A stretch of DNA of 64,000 bases from Squalus acanthias (taxonomy: Eukaryota): positions 15,500,001 to 15,564,000 of the forward strand of contig CM059449.1 in assembly GCA_030390025.1 (NCBI GenBank), written 5' to 3'. Positions 11,601-58,700 of this stretch are shown piece after piece (positions within the stretch are counted from its first letter, which is position 1; each line of letters starts with the position of its first letter). A program made the translations under genes and the position numbers. Below the pieces are notes generated by a model, which was given only the letters and a program-made list of their open reading frames with translations, was not told where the DNA came from and did no database searches.

Positions 11601-11994
11601 TGTATTTCAGATCACAACAACAGGCTGCGGAAAAAAAAATTCTCCTCATCGCCCCTCGGTTTTTTTTGCCAGTATCTTAAATCTGTGTCCTCTGGTTACC
11701 CACATAATAATCAGACAGAACAAGACTGAACTCCTGGTCAACGGATTATACCTTATAGACAAGAAAATTAACCAGATTATCAATTAAAATCAAATTAAAT
11801 CGAAGGAGTAAGCGGTCGGAGTTTATTAAAAGTGACAGGTTGTTCACGTTTCTTTCTGTCACCCACCTGTTTCATGGATCACTGAGTAGAGCGGATCTGG
11901 ACTGAAGCAAAAGAGGACATCAGAAAATTTAGGCATCCAAAAATAAGAAAGTGGCTTTCTTTATATGAAAATAAATCTATGTAAAGTTACCTGG
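8631..11994 (-). pseudogene. Orphan 3' remnant of inhibitory gene (copy I1): exons 11901-11867, 10316-10276 (in-frame TGA), 8738-8631
   Basis: Homology breaks inside the 22-nt micro-exon at about 11994, and no TM, V or leader follows. The ITIM exon is still intact (LQYATL, VLYASV). Confidence 0.78.
10345..10805 (-). mobile_element. tRNA-derived SINE with L2-like tail (DeuSINE/SacSINE-like); copies at about 22793-23250, 36075-36510, 53318-53766
   Basis: Minus-strand head ggctcagttggtagcac..gggtttcaaatccc and tail ..tgtgggagcttgctgtgcg..cctacattacaacag. The family name is tentative. Confidence 0.7.
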
Positions 11995-21082: not shown

Positions 21083-21190
21083 TTACTTCACCGAAGCGTA
21101 CAGCACCCCTTCTCGCTTTACACGGCGCTCAGTTTGATTGCTGTCCTGAATATTCAGCGTGGCGTATTGCAACTTGTCATCCCCCTCTCT
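21083..21190 (-). CDS. I2 exon 8: terminal exon REGDDKLQYATLNIQDSNQTERRVKREGVLYASVK* with two ITIMs
   Basis: Acceptor tttcatctcaatag|, phase 0. LQYATL and VLYASV both match (I/V/L/S)xYxx(L/V), with the tyrosines 22 aa apart. TAA at 21085-21083. Both motifs are kept in the copies at 8631-8738 and 48322-48429. Confidence 0.85.
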   Translation of the reverse strand, partial: REGDDKLQYATLNIQDSNQTERRVKREGVLYASVK

Positions 21191-24100
21191 CTATTGAGAT
21201 GAAAGTGTTTCAATGTTGAATAAAATATTGTAAACTGAATATAGCGTAGGGCCTCAAACCCAGCGCACCAGATGTTGCGCAGTTTCAATGGAATATAATT
21301 CAACCCAGTAAACATTCTACATATAATTAGCATATGACTCCACCTGTCAGATATTGTTTCGTTAAATAGGATAGATCGCGCCGTCCTAAATATTCCTGTC
21401 CTTTTGAATATATTTCAGCTAGTCAACGATTGCACGATTTAAGTAACAAGCAAGGAAAACCGTCGACCTAATTAACACATCATTATCATTTTAAAATCCA
21501 TGCATTTAGAACAATTCACACTTAATGAATTGAGGAGCAGTGGGTCAGTCAGCATCTGGGAAAGACAGATTAACATTTGGGAATAACTGTTCAGGAGCAC
21601 ATTCCGTTGAAGGCAACGTGCCAACCCACGGTTACCCTCTGTTTTCTCTTCCAGGTGCTGCCTGACCTACTTTGCATATCCAGCATTTTCTGTTACGGCT
21701 TCAGATTTCCTCCTTATCTCGACTTTGTCAAAGTAGGTGTATTTTTGCGTGTGCATGCCTGGGTCCCCCTATTTTGGGGTCCATTTTAATGTTCCTGGGT
21801 GTATCTCGTGCTTTTTGTATTCGTTATTGGGATGTGGGCGTCGCTGGCAAGGCCAGAATTTATTGCCCATCCACAGCAGCCTTTGAGAAGGTGGTGGTGA
21901 GCCGCCTTCTTGAACCGTTGCAGTCAAGGTATTCCCACATTGTTTTTCAAAGCGGCTTTTTACAACTTAGTGGCTATTTTGGAGGAGAGTTGAGAGTCAA
22001 CCACATGGCTGTGGGTCTGGAGTCACATATGGGCCAGACCAGGTAAGGACGGCAGATTTCCTTCCCTAAGGGGCATCAGTGAACAAGGTGGGTTTTTATG
22101 ACAATCCGATAGTTTCATGTCACCATTACTGATACTAGCTTTTTAGTCCAGATTTAATTAATTAAATTTAAATTCCCCAGTTGCTGTGGTGGGGTTTGTA
22201 CTGACGTCGCACGGATCATTAGCCCAGCTCTGATGGATTACTAGTCCAGTAACATCAGCAGTATGCTACCGTTCCCTATATATGCTTGTGCATGCAACCT
22301 GCTTATTTGTGTGTGGCTATATGTATTTGCGAGTGTCTGTGAGAGTGTGTCTTTCTGTGTGTGCAGGTGTTTGAATTCTGGAACTGTTAGGTTTCATTTT
22401 ATGTCTTTCCTGGTTGGCTTTCTGTTGAACTTTAACGAATATTTTAGTCCCGCCTCTCTTCAATTTCGATTTTCAACTTGCCGCGCCTGTGCGTAAAACC
22501 GGCGTTTGGGATGGGCCGCATCTGTGCTTTACGCCTGTGTGGCAAGTTGAGAATCTACCCCATATCTTCAAGAAGAAAAGTTGAGGCCGTCCAACCTCGT
22601 TTCATCTTTAGATTTTTACATCCAACTGAGAGAACTTTTTACATGATAATCTACCGGGAAAAGTAAACAAGAGGTCAGGGTTTAAAAATAACAAAAATAG
22701 CCCAAGTCGTTGTGGTACATACCCGATTTGTTCTTCTGCACTCAGAGCTGTCATTATTCCTGTCTATAAAGCATAGAAAAAAGAAAGAAGAAAGACTTGC
22801 ATTTATATAGCGCCTTTCACCACCTCAGGACGTCCCTAAGCGCTTCACAGCCAATCACGTACTTTTTGAAATGTTGTCGCCGTTGTAATGTAGGAACCGC
22901 GGCAGCCATTTTGCGCACAGCAAGCTCCCACAATCAACAATCTGACAATGGCCAAATAAACTGTTTCAGTGATGTTGATTGAGGGACAAACATTGGTCGG
23001 GACACCGGGGATATCTCCCCTGCTCTTCTTCAAAATAGTGCCAAGTGATATTTTACGTTTAGCTGAGAGAGCAGACGGAGCCTCGGTCTATTCTCACATC
23101 TAAAAGACGGTATCTCTGACAGTGCAACGCTCCCTCAGTACTGCACTGGGAGTGTCAGCCTAGATTTTTGTGCTCAAGTCTCTGGAGTGGGAACTTGAAA
23201 CCCACAGCTTTCAATGTTTCAGAGGCAAGGGTGTTACCAACTGAGCCACGGGAAATGACACTGCCTAATTTAATTTACTTGAACAGTGTATACAGTACAA
23301 TACAACATATTGTGCCTTAGATATAGCGCTGTAATACACTGTGGTATAATGCTATAGGATACAACATAACATAGTATAAAACAGGAGAACGCAATAAAAT
23401 AAAGTATACAGTGGGATGTACCGTATTGCAAAACAATAAACCGATAAAATTAGTATGGTCCAATATATAATACGCTACCACGCAATATAAAACAGCATAA
23501 GGTTCTTCTGTGCGATATAAACGGTGTTCATGTCAGATTCCTACGCCCACTATTTTAACTGTTTACTTTAAACTAATGCAAAAAGCAATTTGATATGAGC
23601 GCGCCAAGCACTTGTACGAGAATAGGGTGATGTCCAGGCTAATCTACTATAATATATGATATATAATACAGCATGACATTGAAACGTACTATTAAATATC
23701 ATGGAATAATTTATCACAAAAAAATCAGCGTGTGGTAAGAAAATATTGGCCCAGAAATTGATCTCGCTCTGTTCCCGCGGGGGTAAGCCTTCCCCGCGCT
23801 GTCTCACCTCGCTTATGCTTTTTCAGATCCAGCTCGCACGAACTTGATGTTCCAGACATCAGCTGTGCTGGGCTTGCGTATCCCAGCGGCGTAGTGAATT
23901 CGTGCGAGCTGTGGGATCACGTGACTCAGTTAGAGCCAATGGCAGCACACCATCTTCCATTCATAAGTCTCAGAGCATGGCTGTGAGACTTATGAATCTT
24001 ACACCCCCCCAAAATAACAGCTAAACCTCAATTAAATTTAAAAAAAAACCATCACATTAATAAAATAAGTATAGTTAATTAAATTAACCATTTTAAATAA

Positions 24101-27100
24101 AAAATTAAATTTTTGAAAAAATTTAAAATCTTTTAAAAAGTTATAAAAATAAACTTACCTGTCTTTAAAGTCTATAAAAAAGATATACCTGTAAAAAAAT
24201 TCAAAAAAATACTTAATTCACTACTTACCTTCTTAAAAGCGGGTCTTACTCCTTTTTACATTTCCAAAATCTTCCCTACTTACCTGCGCGTCCAAAGCAT
24301 GAAGTGCACAGCGTGCGCGCAGCCTGTAGCGCGCACGCGATGCACCCAGGCCCCGCCCCCTTTTCGGAAGAGCAATTGCCGGTTTTCAGCGCATGCGCAG
24401 GGCATGCAGAAAACCGGCAATTGGAGTGGGAATACGCGAGAGTACGCAGTGCGTACTCTCGCGTCCCGGGATCAATTTTCGGCCCATTATAAAATATTGT
24501 ATTATCCATAGACCTTAACACTTCCAATTGACTTTGTGGCCAATATGTGTAACATGTGTCACTCAATAGCGGTTCTGGAAACAAGAGCTTTTGAATCATA
24601 GACTCAAACAGCACAGAATGAGGCCATTCGGCCCAACCTGCCTGTCCCGGCTCTCTGAAAGAGCAATAATTAATCCCACTACCCCTGCTCTTTCCCCATA
24701 GCCCTGAAACAGTTCCCTTTTTAAGTATTTATCCAATTCCCTTTTGAAAGGTATTATTGACTCTGTTTCCACCACCCTTTCAGGCAGCGCATTCCAGATC
24801 ACAACAACTCACTGAGTAAATAAAAATTCTCCTAATTTCCCTTTCGCATTTTTTCCCCAGTATCTTAAATCTGTGTCCTCTGGTTGCCGACAGAATAATC
24901 AGACAGATCAATACTGAACTCATGGTCAACGGATTATACCAGATAGATAAGAAAATTAACCAGATTATCATTAAAATCAAATTAAATCGAATGATTAAGC
25001 GTTCGGAGTTTATTAAAAGTGACAGGTTGTTCACGTTTCTTTCTGTCACCCACCTGTTTCATGGATCACTGCGTAGAGCGGATCTGGACTGAAGCAAAAG
25101 AGGACATCAGAAAATGTAGTCATCCAAAACAATAAAATATATTAAAGGAAAAGAAAGTGGCTTTCTTTTTAAAAAAAAGTAGATCTACGTAAACAGTTAC
25201 CTGGTGGGTTGCTGAAGAGTGACTGTGAGGAGAGAAAGACAAAGACAGAAAAATTAAAGAGCTGAATTTATTGATTATATCTGCAAGAAGCAAATGAAAT
25301 AATTGGTATCGAATGAAGTGAATTAAATTTTGGGGGCAATTTTAACCAAACCCGCGGAGAAACGGACGGGATCGGGTGCAACGTTTTGAAGTCAAATGAG
25401 AGCAATATTGGGCGGGTCTAAACCCGGCGTTCCTCCCGATTCCGTGCGTTTCCCGCCCGGTGAGTTCGGATATAATTACCAGAGAATTTGCCAATCACAT
25501 GAAATTCAGTAGACGTACAATTAGTGCTGTTACCTCTCTTACGATGCCGGCTGATAACAACTATGACTATGATGATGATGATGATCAGGAGGGGAACCGC
25601 TACCGCTGCATAGATCAGTGGTGGGATCATTGGTGCGGACTCGCCGTGTCTGCTCTCTCCACCACCTGTGTGTAAATGTGAAGTTTCTTTTTTGAGACAG
25701 AGCATTCAAGAGCAGGAGAATGGTCACATTGAGATTGAGGATCAGCAAATGGGACACAGATTCCCAATCCCCTTTGACATGCGGGGCTATTTCACACTGG
25801 CATACATCAAACTAGGCCACGGATCAAAAAGCAAAATGTCACCAGTGGGCAACTGGGATATTCCCACCCTGGAAGTAACACTGGGCGAATTTTAATGTCG
25901 GGACGCTTAATGAGTTGGTGCCAGTTTCCTTTCTTTTAAATAGCGGGGAGTGGGGGTGGGGATCGTGTGAGTTCTGTTAACATAGGAACAGGAGGAGGCC
26001 ATTCAGCCCCTCGAGCCTGTTCCACCATTCAATGAGATCATGGCTGATCTGCGACCTAACTCCATATACCCAATATCCCTTAATGCATTTGGTTAACAAA
26101 AATCTATCAATCTTCGATTTAAAATTCACAATTCACCCAGCATCAGTTGTCGTTTGAGGAAGAGAGCTCCAAAGTTTTACCACCCTTTGTGTGTGTAGAA
26201 CTGTTTCCTAATTTCACTCCTGAAATGTCTGGCTCTAATTTTTACACCATGTCCCCTAGTCCTAAACTCCCCAATCAGAGGAAGTAATTTCTCTCTATCT
26301 ACCATCTCTGTTCCCCTTAATATCTCGAGAGTGTCCCGCCCAGTTTTCTTGAATTCACTGGACCCTGGAGATCCAATTGGATCCTGAGCACGAACGAGAA
26401 AATCTTCCCGTCCTATTTGCTGGATGCTTAAGACAAATCGAACATCTGGAAATTAGACGTGCCGACACTGAGTGATCAACGTGGTTCTTCCGCGGACCCA
26501 TCTTTGCATTTTGTTGGCGCGCATTGTTGTAATTTCCATTTACACACACAACTATATCCGTCACTACCTCCATTTACAAGATGACAGTGAAATCTAACGT
26601 ATCATAGACGTGTGGACCGGTTTATTCCTAATATTGTCATGCGGTGATTTCAAGGCTCAAGTGTTGCTCTTATTACTGGGCTCTAGTCTTCGCCTCGCAT
26701 ACTGTAACTGGGTTGACTACTTATCTATAGTCCTACCTAAAATTGTATACAGCAACTGAGTGTAATTAATATCCCCTCCATTCATTTATTTAAAAGATCA
26801 TTCTCGGGATACGGACGACGCTAGCGAGGCGGGCATGTTATTGTCCATCTCTGGTTCATCCCTTGAGAAGGTGGTTGTGGACCGCCTTCTTCTTGAACCG
26901 CTGCAGTCCGGTGTGGTGAAGCTTCTCCCGCAGTGCTGTTCGGGAGGCAGTTCCAGGGTTTTGGAAGGAACAGCGATACAAGTCCAAGTCAGGCTGGTGT
27001 GTGACTTGGAGAGGAACTTGGAGGTGATGGCGTTCCCATGCTTCTGCTGCCCTTGTCCTTCTAGGTGGTGGAGATCGCGAGTTTGGGAGTTCCAATTGAT

Positions 27101-30100
27101 AGAATGGAGAATTTACCTATCCTGACAATATTACCCCTAGAAAAATCCCATATGATTGCGTGCAATTTCATTGGTAAGAATATCTCCACCAATCCAAACT
27201 TACTGTATTGACGCCGTTCCACGATCACTTTTGTCCCGGGTCCGTCTGCTGCAGCGAATCCCACGAGCTCCACTTTGCAGAAATAGAACCCTGTATCTTC
27301 CGGTTTCAGCTGGATTATTCTAATCGAAGCATTTCCCCTCTGGCTGAAATCCTCTTCACTTGCCCCGAACACCCTGCCTCTGTATTCCGCTGTATTGTTG
27401 GAAACTTCATTTCCCTGTTTGTTGCCTCTGTGCCACGTGTAGCTGCCGATTCCTGTGGGACCCTCATATCTACAGAGCAGGTCCGCTGTCTGTCCTGCGG
27501 TTTTGGTGAGAGATTGCGGGCTCTGAATTACGGTGATGTTTCCAACAGTAACTGCTGCAAGTGGGTAAAACAGACCATTTATAAATATACAGGGCACTTC
27601 TTTGCTTCAAAGCACGCCATGGAAGGGCTGGTGGTGGAGGTCGCGAGTTTGGGAGTCCCAATTGATCGAATGGTGAATTTACCTATGCGGACCATATTAC
27701 CCCCTGAAAAATCCCATATGATTGCGTGCAATTTAATTGGTAAGAATATCTCCACCAATCCAAACTTACTGTATTGATGCCGTTCCACGGTCACTGTTGT
27801 CCCGGGTCCCTCTGCTGCAGCGATTCCCACGAGCTCCACTTTGCAGACATAGAACCCGGTATCTTCCGGTTTTAGCTGGATTATTCTAATGGACGCGTCT
27901 CCCCTCTGGCTGAAATCCTCTCCACTTGCCCCGAACACCCTGCCTCTGTATTCCGCTGTATTGTTGGAAACTTCATTTCCCTGTTTGGTGCCTCGGTGCC
28001 ACGTGTAGCTGCCGATTCCTCTGGGACCCTCATATCTGCAGTGCAGGTCCGCTGTCTGTCCCGCGGTTTTGGTGAGTGATTGCGGGCTCTGAATTACGGT
28101 GATGTTTCCAACAGTAACTGCTGCAAGTGGGTAAAACAGACCATTTATAAATATACAGGGCACTTCTTTGCTTTAAAGCAGGCCGTGGAATGGCTGGTTT
28201 TAAGCAAATATTATTTCGGAGGATTTTTGATAAGGTATTCCTGATCTTTAACTTGAGGGAATAAAAACAGAAAATACTGGAAACGCTCAGCAGGCCAGGC
28301 AGCATCTGTGGAGAGAGGAACAGAGTCAACGTTTCAGGTCTATGACCTTTCCTCAGAACTGGAAAAAGTTGGAGATGTACCAGGTCTTCAGCAAATGTAG
28401 GGGCCAGGAAAAGGGGGAAGGGGAGGAAAGAACAAAAGGGAAGGTCTGTGATAGAGTGGAAGGCAGGAGAGATTAAATAACACAAGGGACGATGGGGCAA
28501 GAGAAAAGGAGATGGTAATGGGACAAGTTATGAAACAAAAGATGGGTCTAGAGGGGCTGTACATGGTTAACTTGAGGGCTTTTGGTGCTGGAACTGGAGC
28601 GCCTTTGGTTTTTAGGCGCACTCCTCTGTCAAGTATAGAATGATGCGGAGATGCCGCTGTTGGACTGGGGTGGATGAAAGTGAGAAGTCGGGCAAAACCA
28701 GGTTATAGTCCAACAGCGTTATTTGAAATCACAAGCTTTCGGAGCGCTGCTCCTTCGTCAGGTGAAGTGAAGAAATACATATGGGCACAGCATAAATAGT
28801 CAGAGAACAATGCCAGACGACTACAGTTAATCTTTCTAACTGCCCTTTATCACACCTCGGCAGAGAGACAATCACGGCAATCAAAGGTGTGGATGGTGTC
28901 CAACCAGGTCAGTCAGGAAGACATTACATCAAAGACGATAGCAAAATACAACAAAGACAATGAGGTGGGGTCACAATGGGTCAAATGTGGCAGCTGCTGG
29001 AGTCTGTATGGAAAACTATTTTTTGTTTTACTTTTCTTGCTGGAAATTACAGCAGGCCGCATCTGTGTAGAGAGAACAAGCCAGCGACGACTCGAGTCTG
29101 GATGACTCTACGTCAGGTGGGGTTACAGGTAGCGTGACATGAACCCAAGATCCCGGTTGAGGCCATCCTCATGGGTGCGGAACTTGGCTATCAGTTTCTG
29201 CTCGATGATTTTGCGTTGTCGTGTGTCTCGAAGGCCACCTTGGAGAACGCTTACCCGAAGATCGGAGGCTGAATGTCCTTGACTGCTGAAGTGTTCCCCG
29301 ACTGGGAGGTAACACTCCTGCCTGGCGATTGTTGCGCAGGTGTCCGTTCATACATTGTCGCAGTGTCTGCATGGTCTCGCCGATGTACCATGCTCCGGGG
29401 CATCCTTTCCCGCAACATATGAGGTAGACAACGTTGGCCGAGTCTCATGAGTATGTACCATGTACCTGGTGGGTAGTGTCCTCACGTGTGATGATGGTAT
29501 CTGTGTTAATGATCTGGCATGTCTTGCAGAGGTTGCCGTGGCACTCCAGCAGCTGCCACATTTGACCCCTTGTGACCCCACCTCATTGTCTTTGTTGTAT
29601 TTTGCTATCGTCTTTGATGTAATGTCTTCCTGACTGACCTGGTTGGACACCATCCACACCTTTGATTGCCGTGATTGTCTCTCTGCCGAGGTGTGAGAAA
29701 GGGCAGTTAGAAAGATTAACTGTAGTCGTCTGGCATTGTTCTCTGACTATTTATGCTGTGCCCATATGTATTTCTTCACTTCACCTGACGAAGGAGCAGC
29801 GCTTCGAAAGCTTGTGATTTCAAATAAAGCTGTTGGACTATAACCTGGTGTTGTGCGACTTCTCACTCAAGTATAGAATGGATCTGGTACAAAGTACCTC
29901 TGACCCGTTCCAAATAATAAGCATTCACTTTGATTTCAGTTCTCCCGATATGCTTTCTGTGCAGTTCCCGGTCTCATTTACACTTTGATCGAGGGTGTGA
30001 AATGGGCAATCTCGAAGCCCGATGTTCTCTTCCATTTGGGGGTCATTTTAACTTTGGGTGCTAAATGGGCGAGGTCGGGTCGGCTGCCTGAAATTACAAT

Positions 30101-31748
30101 GGGCGGATGATCCGATGTCGCCCGTTTCAGACGCTCGCGTAAAGTCCAAATCACCTCCAACAAGTGATTTGAAGTTTAATCTCATTAGTCTGATCAGATT
30201 GGAAGTCAGATAGATGCTAAACCCTAGCGACCTTCTCACTAATAATCAGCGGTGACCGGAGAATATGTAAAATTCAAACAGAATATTAATAGTCAAAATA
30301 ATGAATCGATCTGAATGTCCTCAGCTTGTTACATGTAGTGACATTACAAATTGGATGAAAGATTTCCCACTTTGGGTATACCTTGTAAAACCGCCAATAC
30401 CTCTTTAATTTTTTTTCATGATTTTGCTACAACTACGGATCAGAGAAAATAGTCAATGCACTTGCGACCTCGTTCCGCGCAGCAAGCAGCGCTACTCTTG
30501 CCCTGTGCTGATAACTAGAGAAAGTTTGTATCCAATTAAACTGCGAGAAATAATATGAATTGAACAATGAAAATGTCATGCCCTCTGGAAACGGGTGTTT
30601 ACTTGAACACAGCCAGCACTCCAAATATTCACTCCAAGGACTGTTGTGGATACAGAATCTTGACATTTTTGGTAGATATAATATCATAGAATCATAGAAT
30701 AATACAGCAGAGAAGGAGGCAGTTCGGCCCATCGTGTCTGTGCCGGCTGTTTCGAAGAACAATCCAGTTAGTCCCACTCCCCCCTCTCTTTCCCCATATC
30801 ACTGCAATCTTTTTCTCCTTCAAATATTTGTCCAATTCCCTTTTGAAGGCAAATTGAATCTGTATCTACCACCCTATCAGGCAGAGGACAAGGGCAATCT
30901 ATACTTCAGGGAGCAACATACATTATGCTCTACTGGACCAGATACAGTAAACCTCTTTACCCGAGAGCTGATCCGTCTCTCACGTTTACATCTCTCTTTC
31001 TCGCTCTGTCTTCCTCAGTCTCTCTTTCTGTCTCTCACACACACGCACGATTGGAACCTATTTCTCTCTCTCTCTCTCTCGTTTCCTATTCCTATCCATG
31101 ACTTCTTGATTTAACTCGTCTTCCCTCCCACTATTTGCAACCTTGATGCTGTCCTTCGCCATGGGCGATTGGCGCTTCACCTAAATGCCTCAATTCAAAA
31201 TAAGCAACCTCGAAAGCGTTAGCTTCTCTGTGGCGAGCCCTGGTTAACTGGGAGATTGATTATATTACCAGGACATAATTCATTACCACGGCGCTGAGAT
31301 ATTAAGATGGTTAATCTCGCGTCTTTGAGAATTTCCGCACAAACCTGATGTTTTATGATTTGCAGGCGAGCTGGTCATGAATATAAAATTGGTTAAATCC
31401 ACAATCTGGTGCTGTGATCAGCAAATATGGTATATCGGAATAAGATTTAACCAGATACACATATAAATAAGAAAAAAGGATGGGAGGACATCGCTTGGGT
31501 ATTTAATATCTAATTAAGACACACAATATTTCATTAAAGTCATTCCGAAATAATGGAAATTAAATCCAGTCAATTTCAATAAAATGCAGCCACTCCGAAA
31601 CGCCAGCTTAACGCTCAGGCGGCAAGTTGAAAATCTACCCCATATTCTTGAACGGATCTGATGTGTCAGAAATAAGCTTACCGGAGAACATAGCGAATGC
31701 CCAGGTAACTGCAGCCCAATTCATTCTCCCTGTCGGCGGTGATATCAT
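21083..31748 (-). CDS. NCR3: Complete inhibitory-type NKp30/NCR3-like receptor gene (copy I2): leader-V-V-TM-cytoplasmic tail with 2 ITIMs, 8 exons, 368 aa
   Basis: Exons 31748-31682, 28120-27770, 27554-27204, 25665-25534, 25222-25201, 25088-25054, 22763-22723 and 21190-21083. All introns are GT-AG with phases 1,1,1,1,2,1,0. The total of 1107 nt (369 codons) reads without an internal stop. The downstream exons and their splice sites are conserved in the paralogous copies. Confidence 0.8.
22723..22763 (-). CDS. I2 exon 7: 41-nt exon (DRNNDSSECRRTNR)
   Basis: Acceptor ctatgctttatag| and donor TCGG|gtatgt. Phase 1 to 0 exactly bridges exon 6 to the ITIM exon. Copies at 10276-10316 and 53247-53287. 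Confidence 0.68.
23748..24485. mobile_element. Non-autonomous DNA transposon (PIF/Harbinger-like MITE), 738 bp
   Basis: Imperfect TIRs GGCCCAGAAATTGATC / GATCAATTTTCGGCCC and a 3-bp TSD (ATT). Absent from the paralogous sites near 11300 and 54262. Confidence 0.75.
25054..25088 (-). CDS. I2 exon 6: 35-nt exon (SPDPLYAVIHET) with YxxI motif
   Basis: Acceptor cttttgcttcag| and donor ACAG|gtgggt. Only the phase-2 frame is open, as the upstream exon requires. Copies at 11867-11901 (LYSVI) and 54833-54867 (LYTVI). Confidence 0.78.
25201..25222 (-). CDS. I2 exon 5: 22-nt cytoplasmic micro-exon (VTLQQPT)
   Basis: Long polypyrimidine tract ending ctcctcacag| and donor CCAG|gtaact, phase 1 to 2. Conserved at 54978-54999. 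Confidence 0.75.
25534..25665 (-). CDS. I2 exon 4: stalk + uncharged TM (SGGESRHGESAPMIPPLIYAAVAVPLLIIIIIIVIVVISRHRKR)
   Basis: Acceptor tttacacacag|GT and donor AGAG|gtaaca give 132 nt, phase 1-1. The hydrophobic span has no charged residue and is followed by a basic stop-transfer RHRKR. Paralog at 55312-55443. Confidence 0.88.
27204..27554 (-). CDS. NCR3: I2 exon 3: IgV domain V2, tandem duplicate of V1
   Basis: Same splice sites and 351-nt length as V1, repeat period 566 bp, open frame, both Cys, Trp and GPGT retained. About 20 nt and 11 aa differ from V1 by manual count. Confidence 0.88.
27770..28120 (-). CDS. NCR3: I2 exon 2: IgV domain V1 (NKp30-like)
   Basis: NAGNAG acceptor ttgcag|CAG and donor TACA|gtaagt give 351 nt. 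Encodes GIGSYTWHRG..GNEVSNNTAEYRGRV..DTGFYVCKVELVGIAAAEGPGTTVTV, which closely parallels human NKp30 AIGSVTW..GKEVRNGTPEFRGRL..YVCRVEVLG..GNGTRLVV. Confidence 0.9.
28643..29866. mobile_element. Penelope-like fold-back insertion in I2 intron 1: 324-bp inverted repeats around a GIY-YIG fragment, 14-bp TSD
   Basis: Arms 28680-29003 and 29543-29866 are near-perfect reverse complements. The minus-strand spacer reads ..ANVVYLICCGKGCPGAWYIGETMQTLRQCMNGH. TSD TCAAGTATAGAATG at 28629-28642 and 29867-29880, with an empty site near 57860. Confidence 0.85.
28729..28765 (-). ncRNA. Minimal type-I hammerhead ribozyme motif (Penelope-associated)
   Basis: TCAC-CTGACGA-A-GGAGC-agc-GCTCC-GAAAGCTT-GTGA: CUGANGA and GAAA core, stem I TCAC/GTGA, 5-bp stem II, and palindromic AAGCTT in place of stem III. 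The mirror copy is at 29781-29817 (+). Confidence 0.65.
31682..31748 (-). CDS. I2 exon 1: signal peptide MISPPTGRMNWAAVTWAFAMFS(A)
   Basis: ATG at 31748 (alternative in-frame ATG at 31724), hydrophobic core, phase-1 donor TCCG|gtaagc. Joins AVTVG-NITV of the V exon to complete a plausible signal peptide. Confidence 0.72.
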
Positions 31749-38645: not shown

Positions 38646-41600
38646 ATGAAAATGCAAACTATTCACATGTGGATGTTCTTGAATTGACGGACCATACTTT
38701 TGCATGTCGGTGAGCCGCTGTCTTCTGATGTACACATTTTAATGTTTTTTCGGGTTTTTTAAATTCGCTTATGGGTTCTGTGCGTCGCTGGCAAGGCCAG
38801 CATTTATTGCCCATCCATAATTGCCCTTAAGAAGGTGGTGGTGAGCCGCCTTCTTGAACCGCTGCAGTCCTTGTGGTGAAGGTACTCCCACAGTGCTGTT
38901 AGGGAGGGAGTTCCAGCTTTTTGATCCAGCGACGATGAAGGATGGTGTGTGACTTGGAGGGGAACTTCGAGGTGCTGGTGTTCCCATGCGCCTGCTGCCC
39001 TTGTCCTTCTCGGTGGAAGAAGTCGCGGGGTTGGGAGGTGCTGCCAAAGAAGCCTTGGCGAGTTGATGCAGTGCATCTTGTAGATGGTACACACTGCAGC
39101 CACGGTACGCCGGAGGTGGAGGGAGTGAATGTTTAAGATGGTGGATGGGGTGCCAATCAAGTGGGCTGCCTTGTCCTGGATGGTGTTCGAGCTTCTTGAT
39201 TGTTGTTGGAGCTGCACTCATCCAGGCAAGTGAAGAGTATTCCATCACACTCCTTACTTGTGCCTTGTAGATGGTGGAAATTCTATATTTATTAAGGCGT
39301 ACGATTATTTGGTTGGGCAGGTTGTTTCCTTATGCAGAACTAATATATAACGAAGTTACATTGTTAAGATAAATTGTTTTATTTTATTATGCTGTGTTAC
39401 TTTGCGTTGAATCCACCATTTCAACGGTATAAGCATTTTATCTTTCGGGGAACTTTATATATATATTATACACATTAGCGTTCTCCTCCATGCAGATGCT
39501 GTAAATTGCATTATACAATTAACATAATTAATAGGGCCTACTAAAATGTACTTATGGAAATAAATTAACTCACGGACTCCTAACCGACTGTGTTACACAT
39601 GGAATTATCTGACATAGTAAACCTTCTACTCGACAATTCAACGTCTTTGCGTTCTACACAATTTATTCCATTAGCAAAAAGTTGATATTCAACACATTTC
39701 CAAAAGTTCCCATACTTACAATTGACATAATAGAAAGGACAGATTTCCTTCTTAAATGATTAAAGATGACAGAAGTGAAATCTGTCCCAAGTAGGAGTGT
39801 GAAATAGAACTGCGTTGGGAAGTGGTGATTATATTATGTCAATCATTTTGCAAAGAAAACCAAGTGCGTGAAAATACAACAGATCCCCCTTTATAAAGTG
39901 ACAATTGCCTCTAAGTTTTGCACCATAAAGTTCTGAATATATACAGCTGTTCAATCTGATTATGGACTGCAATTTCCCAAAGTTCCGTTGAGAAACTGGA
40001 AAAGGACCCAATGTAATGACAGCTGAATACCGGTTTGTAGCTCAATGATTGATGGATCAATCAGCATTTTAATTTCTTCATAACAGCTTGTAAATTGTGG
40101 GACACAAGAGATCATTATGTCCAAAAAAAACCTGTCCCTGTTTGACAGATCAATGCTTCTTTCTCCAGAAACACACATGTTGTCGCTTGAATCTATTTGT
40201 ACTGCCCACTCCCACGGCCGTCTCCAGTAACTTGTTCCACAAATCCCTTCTTCTATAGGCGAACAGTTTCCGCCTGACTTCCCTTCTTACGGCTAACTAG
40301 TTAAAGTCTAAAGTGTGACCCTTGGAAATTAGATCCTTCCCCACAGTGAGCGATCTATCTGGGCTCAATTCATAATAATTGTACAACGCTAACTGAGAGG
40401 TTGCGGTATTTAATGTACGGATACATTGATCCAAATTTATTCTGACAAAAAAGGACACCCTGTAACATCAATTAGTGATGGTGAAAAATACTTTAATTTG
40501 AGCTTCGCCCCTCGTGGCAGATGACATTTAACGCAGGAAAGTGCGAAGTGATACATTTTGGTGGGAAGAACGAGGAGAGGCAAAATAAACTGAAGGTTAC
40601 GATCCTAAAGTGGGTGCCTGAACAGTGAGACCTGGGGGTATATGTGCACAAATCATTGAAGGTGGCAGGGCAGGTTGACAAAGCGGTTAACAAAGCATAC
40701 CGGATACTGGGCTTCATAAATAGAGGCATAGAGTACGAAAGCAAGGGAGTTACGATGAACCTTTATAAAACACTGGTTCGGCCTCAACTGCAGTATTGTG
40801 CCAACTCTGGGCACCGCACTTTAGGAATGATGTGAAGGCCTCAGAAAGGGTGAAGAAAAGATTTACGAGAATGGTTCGGGGATGAGGAACTTCAGTTACG
40901 TGGATAGACGGGAGAAGGCGGAGGTCTTCTCTTTAGAGCAGAGAAGCTTGAGAAGAGATCTGATAGAGGTGTTCAAAATCATGAAGGGTCTCGACAGAGT
41001 AGATAGAAACTGTTCCCATTGGCGGAAGTGTTGAGAGCTAGAAGACACATATTTTAGGCGATTGGCAAAAGAACCAAAGGCGAAATGAGAAAAACCTTTT
41101 TACTCAGCGAGTGATTAGGATCTGGAATGTACTGCCTGAAAGTGTGGTGGAGGCAGATTCAATCGTGGCTTTCAAAAAAGAGTTGGATAAGTACCTGAAG
41201 GAAAAAAAATGCAGAGCTACGGGGAAAGGGCGGGGGAGTGGGACTAGCTAAAGTGCTCTTGCGTAGAGCCGGCACGGGCTCAACGGGCCGAATGGGCTGC
41301 TTCTGTGCTGTAACCATTCTATGATTCTCTGCTGGTCTGTAAATCTGTAGGTCACTATTGACAGATTGCATTGTTCCATTTATACTCTAGACAATGGGTT
41401 GATGAGTGATATCAGAGTGTTCCAGTCCCCAGATACCATTAATGTAACAGAAGGAGGATCGGTGCAGTTGAACTGCACTTTCGAAGCGAATAGTTCTGTT
41501 GGACAAGATGTTTGGAGGCAGGCCTCACAAAGCATGGAAGTGTCCGTTCGGAATCCTTTCTATCAGAGCCGGATAACGAAAACAGGGACGAAATTATTTA

Positions 41601-43921
41601 CCGAAAGAATGGCTTTCCTTGAAATCATCAATTTAATGACAATGGACTCAGATTTTTAGTACTGCGAGGTGGAAATTGCGGCGGTTGGGAAAGCAAGCGG
41701 GACAGGAACACAACTTATAATAACTGACAGTGAGCAGAAAAGATCAGAGTTCGTTTTAAGAATTTATCAATATTTTGACATTGGTATGGCTGTACATGTG
41801 CTATGCAAAGAGATTTCAGTTCGGTGTGCTGAATTGTGTCCGTGTGTCAGTATCACTTTCAAAGTACATCGAGCACATTTGGTCGACAATTAATATCCTG
41901 AAAGTGCCATATATCTGACTTGAATCTGGCTATTCAAGGCGCGGTGCTTTAGGAATAGGAATACACGAGCTTCAGGCTACTTCCCCACCCCCACCACCCC
42001 ACCACCTGAAGGGGAGGGTTATCTCAAAATAGAACTTCGCATTATCCCTTGAGTTTCTTGCTTGGCACCTTACATATCTCTGTTAAGGCAGCTATGTTCG
42101 TCCCTTTTTACAAAGCTAACGAGTCCGAACTCTTCTAGTCTTTTCTCTCTCTCATAACCTCGCACTGGAACTCGAGGGAACAGGCTAGCGTTCACTCCAC
42201 CTCCGGGACTTGCATGTCTCCCTTGAGCCTGAGTGACCAGAAATAAGCACAATACTCAAGATGCTATATGACCAGAGCACTGTACGGTTGGATCCCGCAC
42301 CATATAAAAGGAAACATGCCTTCTATATTTTTTATTCGTTCATGGGATGTGGAATTCGCTGGCAAGGCCAGCATTTATTGCCCATCCCTAATTGCACTTG
42401 AGAAGGTGGTGGTGAGCCACCTTCTTGAACCGCTGCAGTCCGTGTGGTGAAGGCACTCCCACAGTGCTGTTAGGGCGGGAGTTCCAAGATTTTGACCCAG
42501 CGACGATGAAGGATCGGCGATATACTTCTAAATCAAGATGGTGTGTGACTTGGAGGGGAACTTGGAGGTGATGGTGTTCCCATGCGCCTGCTGCCCTTGC
42601 CCTTCCAGGCGGTAGAGGTCGCGAGTTTGGGAGCTGCTGCTGGAGAAGCCTTGGCGAGTTTAATGAAATAGGCTTCAGGTAGAATTTACTGTTTTCGATA
42701 TAAGCCTTTATTTTAAACAGGTTAGCGTCTTGGTTAAAATGAAGGGTATGTGGAACGACAGTATTGCAAAAAATAATTATAGTTTTTTTCAGTTTCCACG
42801 GGGATGCATTACCTTAGATTACATATAAAAATAGGAAACGGCCTTTCTGTAAGGTATAGAACGCCGCTGGAATGTTATTTCAGTTTTCATGTCCTATAAC
42901 TGAGCAATCCAAATTAAATTATTAAATTGCGAACTAGTGGTCTTCGTTATGTGGATTTCTGATTTCAATTGATGGGCGGTGGTGGGGGGCGTGGGGGGTG
43001 GGCGGGGTGATCGCCTGTTATGCACTCCGCCCAGTAATGCGTCCAATTGCCTTAAAATAAAACTGAATATTGGGCGCACCAAAGCCAAATGCTGCGGATG
43101 CTGGAAATCTGAAATAAGAAAGAGAAAATGCTGGAAAATACTCAGCAGTTCAGGCAGCATCAGTGGTGAGTGAGAAACAGAGATAACTTTTCAGGTTTCG
43201 GAAAGAAGGGCAACGACCCGAAACTTAAACTCTGTTTCTCTATCTCTGCCTGCAGATGCTGCCTGACCTGCTGAGTGTTTCCAGCATTTTCTGCTTTTTA
43301 TATTGAATATTGGGCGTGTTGTACAGCGGTCGGCCAATATGATTCTGTCTGCCTTGCGAGCCTGTCCATGTCCAATTTCACCCCTATAACAACACAAAAA
43401 CAGAAAATGCTGGAAATACTCAGCAGGTCAGGCAGCATCCGTGGAGAGAGAAACAGATTTAACGTTTCAGGTCGATGACCCTTCGTCAGAACTGGAAAAA
43501 GTTGGAGATGGAACAGGTTTTTAAGCAAGTGTAGGGCCAGGGAAAGCGGGGAGGGGAGGAAAGAACAAAAGGGAAGGTCTGTGATAGGATGGAAGGCAGG
43601 AGAGATTAAGAGACACAAGGGATGATGGTGCAAGGCAAAAGGAGATTTTAATGGGACAAGTTAAGAAACAAAGATGACTCTAGATGAAGTGTAAATGGCA
43701 ATGGCTGAATGATCGACCACCCCACCATTTTTTTGCATTATCTTTCACTTCAACCAAGCGCCACCATACTGACTATATTATTGTTTCTGTTTCTAACAGG
43801 AGCTAGAGTCGAGCCTATCTGCCATTTCCCCACACTCAGCGCTGGATTACAAGTTACAAAAACGGAGCTGCTGATCATTCTCATAATCACAGGCCTGACG
43901 ACGTACCTCTGTCCCACGTAG
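38646..43921 (+). pseudogene. Activating-type NCR3-like pseudogene (copy A3): leader 38646-38709, V 41391-41729, TM 43800-43921
   Basis: The V exon is near-identical to 1846-2184 but has TAG at 41657-41659 in the FYYC motif. The candidate leader MKMQTIHMWMFLN*RTILLHV|gtgagc has TGA at 38685-38687. The TM has V>E (KTELL). The leader assignment is the least certain part. Confidence 0.8.
38765..39280 (-). mobile_element. 3' fragment of a second CR1/L2-clade LINE family (others at about 2785-3105, 9388-9835, 21828-22272, 26805-27088, 42343-42660, 49062-49421, 56605-56890)
   Basis: Shared motif gtcgctggcaaggccagcatttattgcccatcc and ORF GSKSWNSLPNSTVG..LQRFKKAAHHHLLKG. Confidence 0.8.
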
Positions 43922-55700: not shown

Positions 55701-58700
55701 CAGTTTCCTTTCTTTTAAATGCCGGGGGGTAGGGGTGGGGTCGTGTGAGTTCTGTTAACATTGGACCTTAGAAACAGGAGGAGTCCATTCAGTCCCTCCA
55801 GCCTGTTCCAACATTCAACGAGATCATGGCTGATCTGCGACCTAACTCCATATAACCGCCTTTGGCCCATATTCCTTAATACGTTTGGTTAACAAAAATC
55901 TATCAATCTCCGATTTAGAATTAACAATTGATCTAGCATCAGTTGTCGTTTGAGGAAGAAAGTTCCAAACTTCTATCAGACTTTATGTGTGTAGAAGTGT
56001 TTCCTAATTTCACTCCTGAAAGCTCTGCTATAATTTCTACACCATAGCCCCTAGTCCTAAACTCCCCAACAAGCCGAAATAATTTCTCTCTATCTACCAT
56101 CTCTGTTCTCCTTAATATCACGAGAGTGTCGCTCCTCCCGCTCAGTTTTTTTGAATTCAGTAGCCCCTGGAGATCCCATCGATCCTGAGCACGAACCAGA
56201 AAATCTTCCCCTCCTATTTACGGGATGCTTAAGACAAAAGGAACATCTGGAAATTATAAGTGCCGAGACTGGGTGGTCAACGTGGTTCTTCCGCGGACCC
56301 ATCTTTGCATTTTGTTGGCGAACAATGTTGTAATTTCTATTTGCACACACAACTATATCCGCCACTACCACCATTTACAGGATGGCAGTGAAATCTAACT
56401 AATCATATACGCGTTGACCGGTTTATTCCTAATATTGGCACGCGGTGATTTCAAGGCTCACGTGTTGCTCTAATTACGGGGCTCCAGTCTTCGCCTCGCA
56501 CACTGTAACTGGGTTGACTACTTATCTATAGCCCTATCTAAAATTGTATACAGCAACTGAATGTAATTATTATCCCCACTATTTATTTATTTTAAAAGGT
56601 AATTCTCGGGATACGGGCGACGCTGGCGAGGCGGGCATGTTATTGTCCATCTCTGGTTGACCCCTTGCGAAGGTGGTGGTGGGCCGCCTTCTTCTTGAAC
56701 TGCTGAATTCAGTGTGGTGAAGGTTCTCCCGCAGTGCTGTTAGGGAGGCAGTTCTAGGATTTTGGAAGGAACAGCGATACAAGTCCAAGTCAGGCTGGTG
56801 TGTGACTTGGAGGGGGACTTGGAGGTGGTGGTGTTCCCATGCGCCTGCTGCCCTTGAACTTCTAGGTGGTGGAGGTCGCGTTTTGGGAGTTCCAATTGAT
56901 GTAATGGAGAATTTTTCTCTACGGCCGATATTACCCCTAGTAAAATCCCATATGATTGCGTGCAATTTCATTTGTAAGGACATCTCCACCAATCCAAACT
57001 TACTGTATTGACGCAGTTCCACGGTCACTGTTGTCCCGGTTCGTGAGCTGCAGCGATTCCCACGAGGTGCACTTTGCAGGAATAGAACCCGGTATCTTCC
57101 GGTTTCAGCTGGATTATTCTAATGGTCGCGTCTCTCCTCTGTCTGAAATCCTCTTTACTTGCCCCGAACACCCTGCCTCTGTATTCCGCTGTATTGTTGG
57201 AAACTTCATTTCCCTGTTTGGTGCCTCGGTGCCACGTGTAGCTGCCGATTCCTGTGGGACCCTCATATCTACAGAGCAGGTCCGCTGTCTGTCCCGCGGT
57301 TTTGGTGAGAGATTGCGGTCTCTGAATTACGGTAATATTTCCAACAGTAACTGCTGAATCTGGGTAAAACAGACCATTTATAAATATACAGGGCACTTCT
57401 TTGCTTTAAAGCAGGCCGTGGAAGGGCTGGTTTGAAGCAAATATTTGTTCGGAGGATTTTTGATAAGGTATTCATGATCTTTAACTTGAGGGAATAAAAA
57501 CTGAAAACACTGGATACACTCAGCACGTCAGGCAGCATCTGTGGAGAGAGAAACAGTGTTAACGTTTCAGCTCCATGACATTTCGTCAGAACTGGAAAGG
57601 TTGGAGATGTACCAGGTTTTAAGCAATTGCAGAGGCAGGGAAAAGGAGGAAGGGGAGGAAAGAAGAAAAGGGAGGTTCTGTGATAGAGTGGAAGGCAGGA
57701 GAGATTCAATGACAAAAGGGATGATGGTGCAAGACAAAAAGAGATGGTAATAGGACAAGTAAAGGAACAAAAGATGGGTGCAGGAGGGGTGTAAATGGTT
57801 AAATTGAGGGATATTGGTGCTGGAGCTGGAGCGCCTTTGGTTTTTGGGATCACTCCATGTCAAGTATAGAATGGATCTGGTACAAAGTACCTCTGTCCCG
57901 TTCCAAATAATCAGCTTTAACTTTAATTTCAGTTCTCCCGATATGTTTTCTGTGTTGCCCGCTGGTCTCATTAACACTTTGAGCGAGGGTGTGAAATGGG
58001 CAATCTCGAAATTAAACGCCTTGCCCGATGTTCTCTTCCATTTGGGTGCCATTTTAACTCTGGGTGCTAAATGGGCGAGGTCGGATCGGCTGCCTGAAAT
58101 CAAAATCGGGGCAGGTGTACAACTGCGGCTGATCCGACGTCGCCATAGCTCTCCATATATCTTTCTACTTCTTTTCTTGATCTGTCTTTGCATTTCTCAC
58201 TGTCTGCTTTCTGGTTCTCAGTTTCTCTCACTGGTTCTCTGTGAATTTGGGAGTGATGAAACAGGAGAATGAAAGATGTTTTATTTAAATTTGGAGAGAC
58301 AGGCGTTGAGGGTCCCTGGGTTACATTCTGGGACCAGTGGGGGACACACGCAGGCTGTGCAAAGACTGGTGTCCTGTATCTCTAATTCTTTTCATTATAT
58401 CTCTGTATCTCTACAGTTTTCTTTATATCTCTATTCCTCTCTCTCTATGTGCCTATCTGTATGTCGATCTCGCTTTATATTTCTGTATCTCTCTGTACCT
58501 TTCCTTTATAACTTTATAATTTTGTATTCCTTGAAATCTCCACATCTCTCTCTTTGAAACTCTCAGAATGTCTGTTCTCTTTTTCTCTCAGGATCCCTCT
58601 CAGGCCTATTATTTGAGAGAGACATTTTAAACTTAAACAGAACCTGCTCCAAAGACACAAGAGATGCGGAACTAGAATGTGTGCCAACACCTTCTGCCTC

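Follow-up and report, generated by a model that had tools for sequence, protein, structure and literature searches.

A tandemly duplicated NKp30-like V exon in a predicted inhibitory receptor gene of Squalus acanthias

The stretch of DNA analysed here (the window) spans 64,000 nucleotides of Squalus acanthias and contains, on the minus strand, a gene with two NKp30-like V exons, V1 and V2 (Table 1). These exons lie in a tandem repeat of 569 bp with an offset of 566, whose copies are 94% identical. The repeat junction falls in the intron between them and is marked by a 3-nt microhomology at approximately 27630-27632. Both V exons have AG/GT ends and are free of stop codons, and their splice-site surroundings are the same, with acceptors identical over 53 nt and donors over 34 nt. 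Both cysteines, the tryptophan and a GxGT J-like motif are contained within the single exon. V1 and V2 differ at 20 nucleotides over 19 codons, with 11 nonsynonymous and 9 synonymous changes. An initial annotation of this DNA had described a 566-bp tandem duplication with two intact phase 1-1 V exons and a 215-nt intron, and had counted the same differences by hand; all of this was reproduced. It had also placed several replacements in the BC loop and the F-G region, of which the second placement holds (positions 91, 99, 103, 108 and 110), but in our predicted model only one of the 11 replacements (position 33) lies in the BC loop.

Table 1. Positions of the gene features and of the neighbouring paralog within the window
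Feature	Position	Strand	Remarks
Leader exon	31682..31724	-	14 codons + 1 nt; tblastn with homolog N-termini; GT donor; 12 copies in cluster
Insertion in intron 1	28679..29867		1.19 kb; 325-nt inverted ends
Duplicated unit, copy 1	27630..28198	-	78 nt intron + V1 + 140 nt intron
V1 exon	27770..28120	-	Membrane-distal NKp30-like VJ-type Ig domain; 351 nt, phase 1-1
V1-V2 intron	27555..27769	-	215 nt; holds the junction
V2 exon	27204..27554	-	Membrane-proximal NKp30-like Ig domain; 351 nt, phase 1-1
Duplicated unit, copy 2	27064..27632	-	
Stalk + transmembrane exon	25534..25665	-	Hydrophobic stretch without charged residue
Cytoplasmic exon A (predicted)	25201..25222	-	22 nt; AG/GT kept across paralogs; frame fits homolog tails
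Cytoplasmic exon B (predicted)	25054..25088	-	35 nt; one tyrosine in non-canonical context
Cytoplasmic exon C (predicted)	22723..22763	-	41 nt
Last exon	21083..21190	-	ITIM-like motifs LQYATL and VLYASV; stop codon
Neighbouring paralog, single V exon	57004..57353	-	350 nt; frameshifted

Starting at the ATG that lines up with the starts of homologs, the eight-exon gene model, in which the small cytoplasmic exons are predicted from conservation and frame, encodes 360 aa with both V exons or 243 aa with one. The product sizes given previously, 368 and 251 aa, are instead obtained from a second in-frame ATG, which lies 8 codons upstream of the leader start and precedes all 12 leader copies. The ITIM consensus is (I/L/V/S)xYxx(L/V). 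Both ITIM-like motifs of the tail are kept in all three two-V genes found in this genome (see below) and are similar to those of catshark P0001 and horn shark P0002. Because the transmembrane segment is uncharged and the tail carries two ITIM-like motifs, the product of the window gene is predicted to be an inhibitory receptor, unlike human NKp30. The inhibitory-type tail did not feature in the initial annotation. The insertion in intron 1, which may resemble a Penelope-like element (GIY-YIG-type motif), is common to the three two-V genes, and none of the five leader-bearing single-V genes compared has it.

The assignment to the NKp30 (NCR3) family made earlier is supported by sequence, by fold and by grouping with shark NCR3. 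The top four PDB sequence matches of the V domain are NKp30 (best E 3e-14), and Foldseek comparison of the predicted V1 model (pLDDT 86.6) likewise places NKp30 at ranks 1-4, with TM-scores of 0.76-0.81, so that human NKp30 (NCR3, PDB 3PV6 and 3NOI) is the best match on both counts. In a tree built without human NKp30, the V domain forms a clade with the nurse shark NCR3 record P0003 (support 100/97). The NCR3 domain is of the non-rearranging VJ type and encoded by a single exon, according to the portion of PMC12227049 drawn on here. Among the positions through which NKp30 contacts B7-H6, 6 of 11 match human NKp30 in both V exons and 5 of 11 differ from it; the ligand may belong to the B7 family, for instance B7-H6. 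As regards linkage to the MHC, class I-type exons occur 15-23 Mb away on the contig of the window (30.7-38.4 Mb), and the best-scoring class I matches are on other contigs.

Among 40 scored genome matches, the V1-V2 intron with its junction is matched over its full length in three places, all on contig C26, which carries the window. The three two-V genes (the window gene, gene A and gene B) differ by up to 4%, with A and B 98.6% alike, and in each of them all eight exons are intact with AG/GT sites. Of 21 other V copies, which are related rather than independent, 3 sit in a fully intact gene and 18 in incomplete or broken genes; half (3/6) of the fully intact genes of the window-gene subtype are two-V genes. 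Codon 95 encodes Glu in 6/6 exons of the two-V genes and in 0/14 other 351-nt copies, which fits an origin of the second exon within one gene. A crossover between two diverged paralogs is less likely, as the six exons share this one diagnostic site and the introns downstream of them have shared states, although V1-V2 conversion could produce a signal like the intragenic one. The V-exon tree is poorly resolved, with 11 of 24 branches open.

Tandem V exons also occur in four other subtypes of the same cluster. A rough scan for transmembrane exons, which chose a downstream acceptor in a control gene, found no transmembrane segment for the pair at 15.409 Mb or for its one-V paralog. An 8.5-kb 45-nt array (C26, 14.778-14.786 Mb) was tested as a candidate stalk exon of mucin type and discarded; it has stops in all three frames, and the transmembrane exon has a separate acceptor. 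The paralog "I3", with which the window gene had been contrasted, is taken to be the V exon at 57353-57004, the sole other V exon of the subtype in the window. It does have one V exon, but it makes a poor comparator because it is frameshifted and no leader was found nearby.

The reading that we favour, at a probability of about 0.65, is that one V exon was duplicated in tandem in these three genes and that both copies are likely spliced in, giving a predicted two-domain inhibitory receptor. A single intragenic duplication would have been copied afterwards along with the whole gene, as the shared microhomology junction suggests. The main mRNA would then run leader-V1-V2-TM-tail (360 aa), with single-V skips minor at most. 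Judging from the uncharged transmembrane segment and the ITIM-like motifs, ligand binding would recruit SHP-type phosphatases and dampen the cell. V2 may be held as a conserved binding site or spacer, a role to which its slower protein-level change, weakly shown, points, and V1, farther from the membrane, may vary and add reach or avidity.

The likely outcome of splicing bears directly on this reading. Exons used as mutually exclusive pairs have an intervening intron that is too short, mismatched U2/U12 sites, or a frameshift upon double inclusion, and the steric limit for splicing an intron is roughly 50 nt. The V1-V2 intron is of the GT-AG type, with 188 nt separating its donor from a branch-point-like site, and double inclusion and either single skip all keep the frame. 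Docking/selector RNA pairings are a mechanism of mutually exclusive exons, as treated in the part of PMC7404189 used here. No strong RNA pairing was found: apart from the hairpin of the inserted element itself, there are 29 inverted repeats between the transmembrane and leader exons. The longest measures 30 nt at 70%, and of those that reach the V1-V2 intron the best has 26 nt at 81%. As nothing in intron length, splice-site type, frame or inverted repeats pointed to a device for mutually exclusive splicing, inclusion of both V1 and V2 is likely the default on this sequence evidence. The two-domain product proposed initially is supported as a likely outcome with an open frame through both exons. 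The "switchable exons" of the same proposal are unsupported, given the frame kept with both exons, their identical splice-site surroundings and the lack of strong pairing.

A broader version, in which V1 and V2 are alternative cassettes and regulated skipping yields V1-only, V2-only and V1-V2 receptors with different binding, seems unlikely to us, and strict mutual exclusion is its extreme case and a very small fraction of it. Either exon can be skipped in frame, recent duplicate exons with equal splice sites can be skipped, and V1 and V2 differ at the equivalent of NKp30 Ser82, which contacts B7-H6, and next to two further contacts. However, V1 and V2 agree at 10 of the 11 contact-equivalent positions, the inverted repeats are short and imperfect, the 215-nt intron and its branch-point spacing are far above the steric limit, and horn shark multi-V models retain all their V domains (7/7 isoform models listed in RefSeq for two multi-V relatives). 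Against our favoured reading, no transcript of the window gene was seen, no RNA run was listed as covering 27000-28300, and no V1-V2 joint is present among the joints listed for four sequencing runs; the lone run guessed to be RNA (X12), in which two contigs end at 27204 and 27555, is labelled as another organism.

The excess of silent changes between V1 and V2 had been read as constraint on both copies. Within the window gene this excess is not significant (dN/dS 0.38-0.46, Fisher p 0.057-0.121), and the corresponding values in the two sister genes are 0.65-0.79. It is the comparison between sister genes that supports constraint, and for V2 alone: between gene A and the window gene, V2 has 4 nonsynonymous and 8 synonymous changes (dN/dS 0.16-0.19, p 0.002-0.006) and V1 has 13 and 5 (dN/dS 0.86-1.03), a contrast of 13 versus 4 that gives p 0.045. 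These p-values are marginal after correction for the 18 pairs tested. The low V2 ratio arises partly because its silent changes exceed those of neighbouring introns (8/94 versus 3.9%, p 0.03), and its replacements are only borderline low (4/254, two-sided p 0.052). Divergence between sister genes is patchy, at 0.8-5.7% along the gene, which points to recombination or conversion and makes these readings less secure. V1 is 19 nt from its sister V1 and 15-18 nt from unrelated paralogs, distances for which neutral drift or conversion is as good an explanation as selection. The data therefore weakly suggest that V2 is constrained between sister genes and V1 is not.

These results leave some room, in our judgement not much, for the extra exon being a neutral passenger spread by segmental duplication, with V1 drifting or overwritten by conversion in a gene that is perhaps little expressed. 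The V1 ratio near 1 resembles that of broken or orphan V copies (mean 1.09), cluster turnover is fast, as the many incomplete or broken copies attest, and the repeated tandem V duplications may reflect a mutational tendency. Against this, all three V1 copies retain frame, both cysteines, the core tryptophan and splice sites, for which the neutral chance is roughly 0.04-0.24 for each unused exon lineage, and the two-V genes are intact in all three cases.

That the tandem copy is an assembly artefact merging two haplotypes or paralogs is scarcely credible: many cluster copies have near-identical twins, A and B included, and some duplicated blocks could be haplotypes, but the junction recurs in three genes differing by up to 4%, has clean microhomology, lies in a block without an N gap, and is bridged by one 215-nt contig from another sample (run X6; gapless over 27520-27711, depth 2.8). 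Runs X1 and X5 have no piece across the junction among the pieces listed and no depth over 27660-27703, and such contig holes prove nothing. Because three intact genes share the junction and another sample bridges it, a haplotype merge is very unlikely, and the worry about an artefact raised initially is largely removed.

On its own, the window-gene duplication is an ordinary case of a duplicated exon in an immune cluster with fast turnover, since repeated V domains are common among shark relatives. A more ambitious proposal, which we put forward tentatively and consider doubtful, is that V-exon number (1 to 5) is a recurrent, selected dial for reach and avidity in shark NKp30-family genes. 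In the lineage of the three two-V genes, the proximal V would be kept fixed and the distal V would diversify at a site of ligand contact, while single-V receptors with other specificities would be added by optional skipping. If so, this would be an inhibitory NKp30 with a small germline repertoire. As three of the six fully intact subtype genes have two V exons, the contribution of an added Ig domain could be tested naturally on matched one-V and two-V genes of one genome.

Shark NCR3 proteins of the same subtype (nurse shark QTT61898.1 [P0003], horn shark P0002, catshark P0001, and bamboo shark P0065 and P0072) have V domains 64-72% identical to those of the window gene, with which they form one clade (support 100/97), a similar leader and an uncharged transmembrane segment, with tail tyrosine motifs in P0001, P0002 and P0065. 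All five have one V of that type, whereas three Squalus acanthias genes have two; the second V of P0001 is of another subtype, follows the transmembrane segment and tail, and probably reflects a fused model. Multi-V NCR3-like RefSeq models are found in horn shark (XP_067865773.1, 3 V; XP_067865605.1, 2 V), Mobula (XP_062903898.1, 5 V), bamboo shark (XP_043533794.1, 2 V) and catshark (XP_038671255.1, 2 V). Like the window gene, they carry NKp30-like V domains in tandem that arose by exon duplication, in many cases specific to one species, but they belong to other subtypes and are predicted models rather than tested proteins. Their automatic names (SIRP-, pIgR- and turtle-like) hide the NCR3 relationship. 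A two-V arrangement of another subtype is common to sawshark, horn shark and Squalus acanthias. None of the titles listed by our literature search concerned shark multi-V NKp30, from which we claim no absence. Kinlein 2021, reportedly on shark NCR3 genes, may already describe multi-V or ITIM-bearing members, as may Ohta and Flajnik 2015 and Flajnik 2012.

SIRP-alpha and KIR2DL/3DL are ITIM receptors with variable numbers of Ig domains, and the window gene would share with these and other ITIM receptors a multi-Ig ectodomain, an ITIM tail and faster change in the distal domain. It is not a member of this group: it has no C1 or C2 domains, and SIRP matches are five orders of magnitude weaker than those to NKp30. 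Human NKp30 has one IgV domain and a transmembrane arginine that pairs with CD3zeta/FcRgamma, as given in the part of PMC6514059 drawn on here, whereas the window gene has two V exons, an uncharged transmembrane segment and ITIM-like motifs. The contrast with a canonical one-V NKp30 made at the outset therefore stands for the human receptor but not as a novelty, multi-V members being common in the shark family. The view of NKp30 as a fixed one-domain activating receptor is corrected by this: its shark family has predicted inhibitory members and changes its number of V domains repeatedly.

The tandem V exons of the minus-strand NKp30-like gene are real, intact and common to three genes, and we consider it likely, at a probability of about 0.65, that the product is a two-domain inhibitory receptor of the NKp30 family. 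Self-comparison gives tandem 569-bp copies (27064-27632 and 27630-28198) with an offset of 566 and 94% identity, and the duplication junction reuses three bases common to both parent ends. V1 (membrane-distal) and V2 (membrane-proximal) lie 215 nt apart, and 20 nucleotide differences spread over 19 codons separate them, of which 11 are nonsynonymous and 9 synonymous; the counts of the initial annotation (566 bp, a 215-nt intron, and 20 differences split 11 and 9) proved correct on recount. The non-coding part of the duplicated unit differs at 14 of 218 nt. As a diagnostic exon site is exclusive to two-V exons (6/6, against 0/14 other full-length V copies), duplication within one gene would be the favoured origin.

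The genome search, with 150 of 208 candidates scored, gave 70 V-like matches, every one on contig C26 (CM059449.1). The 1,044 kb examined around them, which exclude 15.27-15.39 Mb and the greater part of 13.5-14.0 Mb, hold 27 close V copies, six of which make up three two-V genes: the window gene and its sisters A and B. Only these three returned the full-length V1-V2 intron in a whole-genome DNA search (40 hits scored), and they have the duplication junction and an intron-1 insertion in common. With 98.6% identity between them, A and B could be two haplotypes of a single gene; the window gene differs from each by ~4% mid-gene. The insertion (28679-29867), which marks the three two-V genes, has 325-nt inverted ends that are 98% complementary and could form a long pre-mRNA hairpin enclosing no V exon.

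Positions of tandem V exons and multi-V genes (V1 and V2 in window coordinates, the others on contig C26)
Feature	Position	Strand	Description
V1 exon	28120-27770	-	351 nt, AG/GT ends, phase 1-1
V2 exon	27554-27204	-	351 nt, AG/GT ends, phase 1-1
Two-V gene A	15.029-15.039 Mb		
Two-V gene B	15.186-15.196 Mb		
Four tandem V exons	14,770,396-14,777,739		then single TM-like exon; V exons intact
Four tandem V exons	14,886,524-14,892,444		then single TM-like exon; V exons intact
Three tandem V exons	13,673,028-13,681,903		V exons at 13.676-13.682 Mb, before lysine-bearing TM (activating type)
Two tandem V exons	15.409-15.412 Mb		

Based on homolog proteins and on conservation across 10 paralogous regions, the gene has a leader exon, the V1 and V2 exons, a TM exon, three small exons for the tail and a last exon, eight in total. 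The frame stays open with both V exons included (360 aa) or with one (243 aa), and an upstream ATG adds 8 aa; the V1-V2 or single-V products proposed initially fit this model. The V1 and V2 acceptors are identical over 53 nt and the donors over 34 nt. In the V1-V2 intron, 188 nt separate the donor from a branch-point-like site. All seven isoform models listed for two multi-V relatives in horn shark retain every V domain, and both V exons are likely included by default here. Two contigs of X12, an RNA-guessed run with a different organism label, stop at exon edges and continue into off-stretch sequence, as would be expected if a relative splices at these sites; among the joints listed for the 4 runs aligned, none links V1 to V2.

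That V1 and V2 are alternative cassettes is rather unlikely given that the frame is kept with both, and a search for inverted repeats found no strong pairing of the docking/selector kind described in PMC7404189. In favour of cassettes are differences at the ligand face. The 11 NKp30 residues given in Table II of PMC3135353 as touching B7-H6 were carried over by NKp30 sequence alignment; the glycosylated asparagines reported in PMC12272517 served to fix the numbering. At these positions 6/11 are identical to NKp30 in both exons and V1 equals V2 at 10/11; the sole difference, position 66 (NKp30 Ser82), is also the site with the most states, four in the 11 V exons from leader-bearing genes. Positions 33 and 99, which also differ between V1 and V2, adjoin NKp30 contacts. 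This pattern would allow a small difference in specificity.

That the extra V exon is a neutral passenger would suit the dN/dS of V1 between genes (0.86-1.11) and the mean of broken or orphan V copies (1.09; intact copies, 0.65). It is quite unlikely, however, as canonical splice sites and 8/8 exons are retained in all three two-V genes, and a rough neutral model gives an unused exon lineage a chance of 0.04-0.24 of staying intact. The other 21 V copies include three in fully intact genes and two in genes whose last exon is damaged; the remainder have no leader, TM or tail that could be recognised (a diverged leader might escape detection) or carry stops or frameshifts. The paralog presumably used initially as comparator (57353-57004, minus strand) does have a single V exon but is frameshifted. 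At 8631-11901 (minus strand) lies a truncated paralog that consists of tail exons (B, C with a stop, and the last one) and has no TM, V or leader.

V2 copies of the three genes form one clade (support 89/87), and the window V1 falls outside the group of sister V1 copies. V2 between genes has a dN/dS of 0.16-0.21 (p 0.002-0.006), with A and B giving comparisons that are not independent of each other. The inference that both copies were under constraint is unsupported by the V1 versus V2 test (window 0.38-0.46, p 0.057-0.121; A and B 0.65-0.79). Measured against the 3.9% divergence of neighbouring introns, V2 is low in replacements (two-sided p 0.052) but also high in silent changes (p 0.03); V1 does not stand out. 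Since 18 pairs were tested and divergence along the gene is patchy, the asymmetry, with V2 perhaps constrained more than V1, is suggestive only.

An assembly artefact, including the haplotype merge that had been a concern, is very unlikely: the junction is common to the window gene and to A and B, both ~4% divergent from it mid-gene, and a contig of DNA run X6 (organism label unlike the best-matching runs) spans 27520-27711 over it with 6 differences and no gap, no bridging piece being among those listed for the other three of the 4 runs aligned.

The cluster also holds plus-strand V exons of another NKp30-like subtype (1863-2177 and 41402-41722 in the window, the second with an in-frame stop), copies of which alternate head-to-tail with minus-strand genes. 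On C26, near-identical twins of several V copies at 15.06-15.77 Mb lie in a second block at 17.03-17.15 Mb, ~1.3 Mb from the cluster; this block is either a segment duplicated recently or a haplotype kept in the assembly. At 15,756,058-15,772,467 and 17,132,082-17,148,043, V-TM-tail units on the minus strand have their nearest leader ~16 kb off on the plus strand, as if severed by inversion. MHC class I-type exons are also on C26, 15-23 Mb off; NKp30/NCR3 is placed in the MHC by PMC10751288 and PMC12227049.

Tandem V exons occur in four other NKp30-like subtypes of this genome, each array presumably belonging to a single gene. Orthologous shark and ray models of the four-V genes have 1, 2, 3 or 5 V domains. 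The two-V core of the three-V gene is common to horn shark and sawshark models, which makes it an old multi-V NKp30-family receptor. A screen of 160 database proteins left 22 above the similarity cut; in this set, some models from horn shark, sawshark, catshark, bamboo shark and devil ray carry 2, 3 or 5 V domains in tandem. A domain tree built from 20 of the 22 proteins (55 domains, with P0007-type fused, redundant and partial rows excluded) has several strongly supported within-gene clades and one older cross-species two-V arrangement. As 5/5 database proteins of the window-gene subtype have one V, the novelty is the two-V form of this subtype; multi-V forms of other shark and ray subtypes are known from database models. 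An 8.5-kb minisatellite with a 45-nt unit (14,778,036-14,786,514) occupies the intron between a fourth V exon and its TM exon. The catshark protein P0001, a 469-aa model with V, TM and ITIM tail, after which come another V and TM that belong to a different subtype, is probably two adjacent genes joined by annotation.

Database homologs of the window gene are all from sharks and rays. Both V1 and V2 contain a Pfam V-set domain. Among solved structures, human NKp30 is closest to the V domain in sequence; it is also the best fold match of the predicted V1 model. The TM is devoid of charged residues, and two ITIM-like motifs are encoded by the last exon. Human NKp30 is described in PMC6514059 as having a single IgV domain and a TM arginine, whereas the window gene has two V exons, an uncharged TM and an ITIM-like tail; with an NKp30-like V but a different TM and tail, it belongs to the family and is predicted to have signalling opposite to that of human NKp30.
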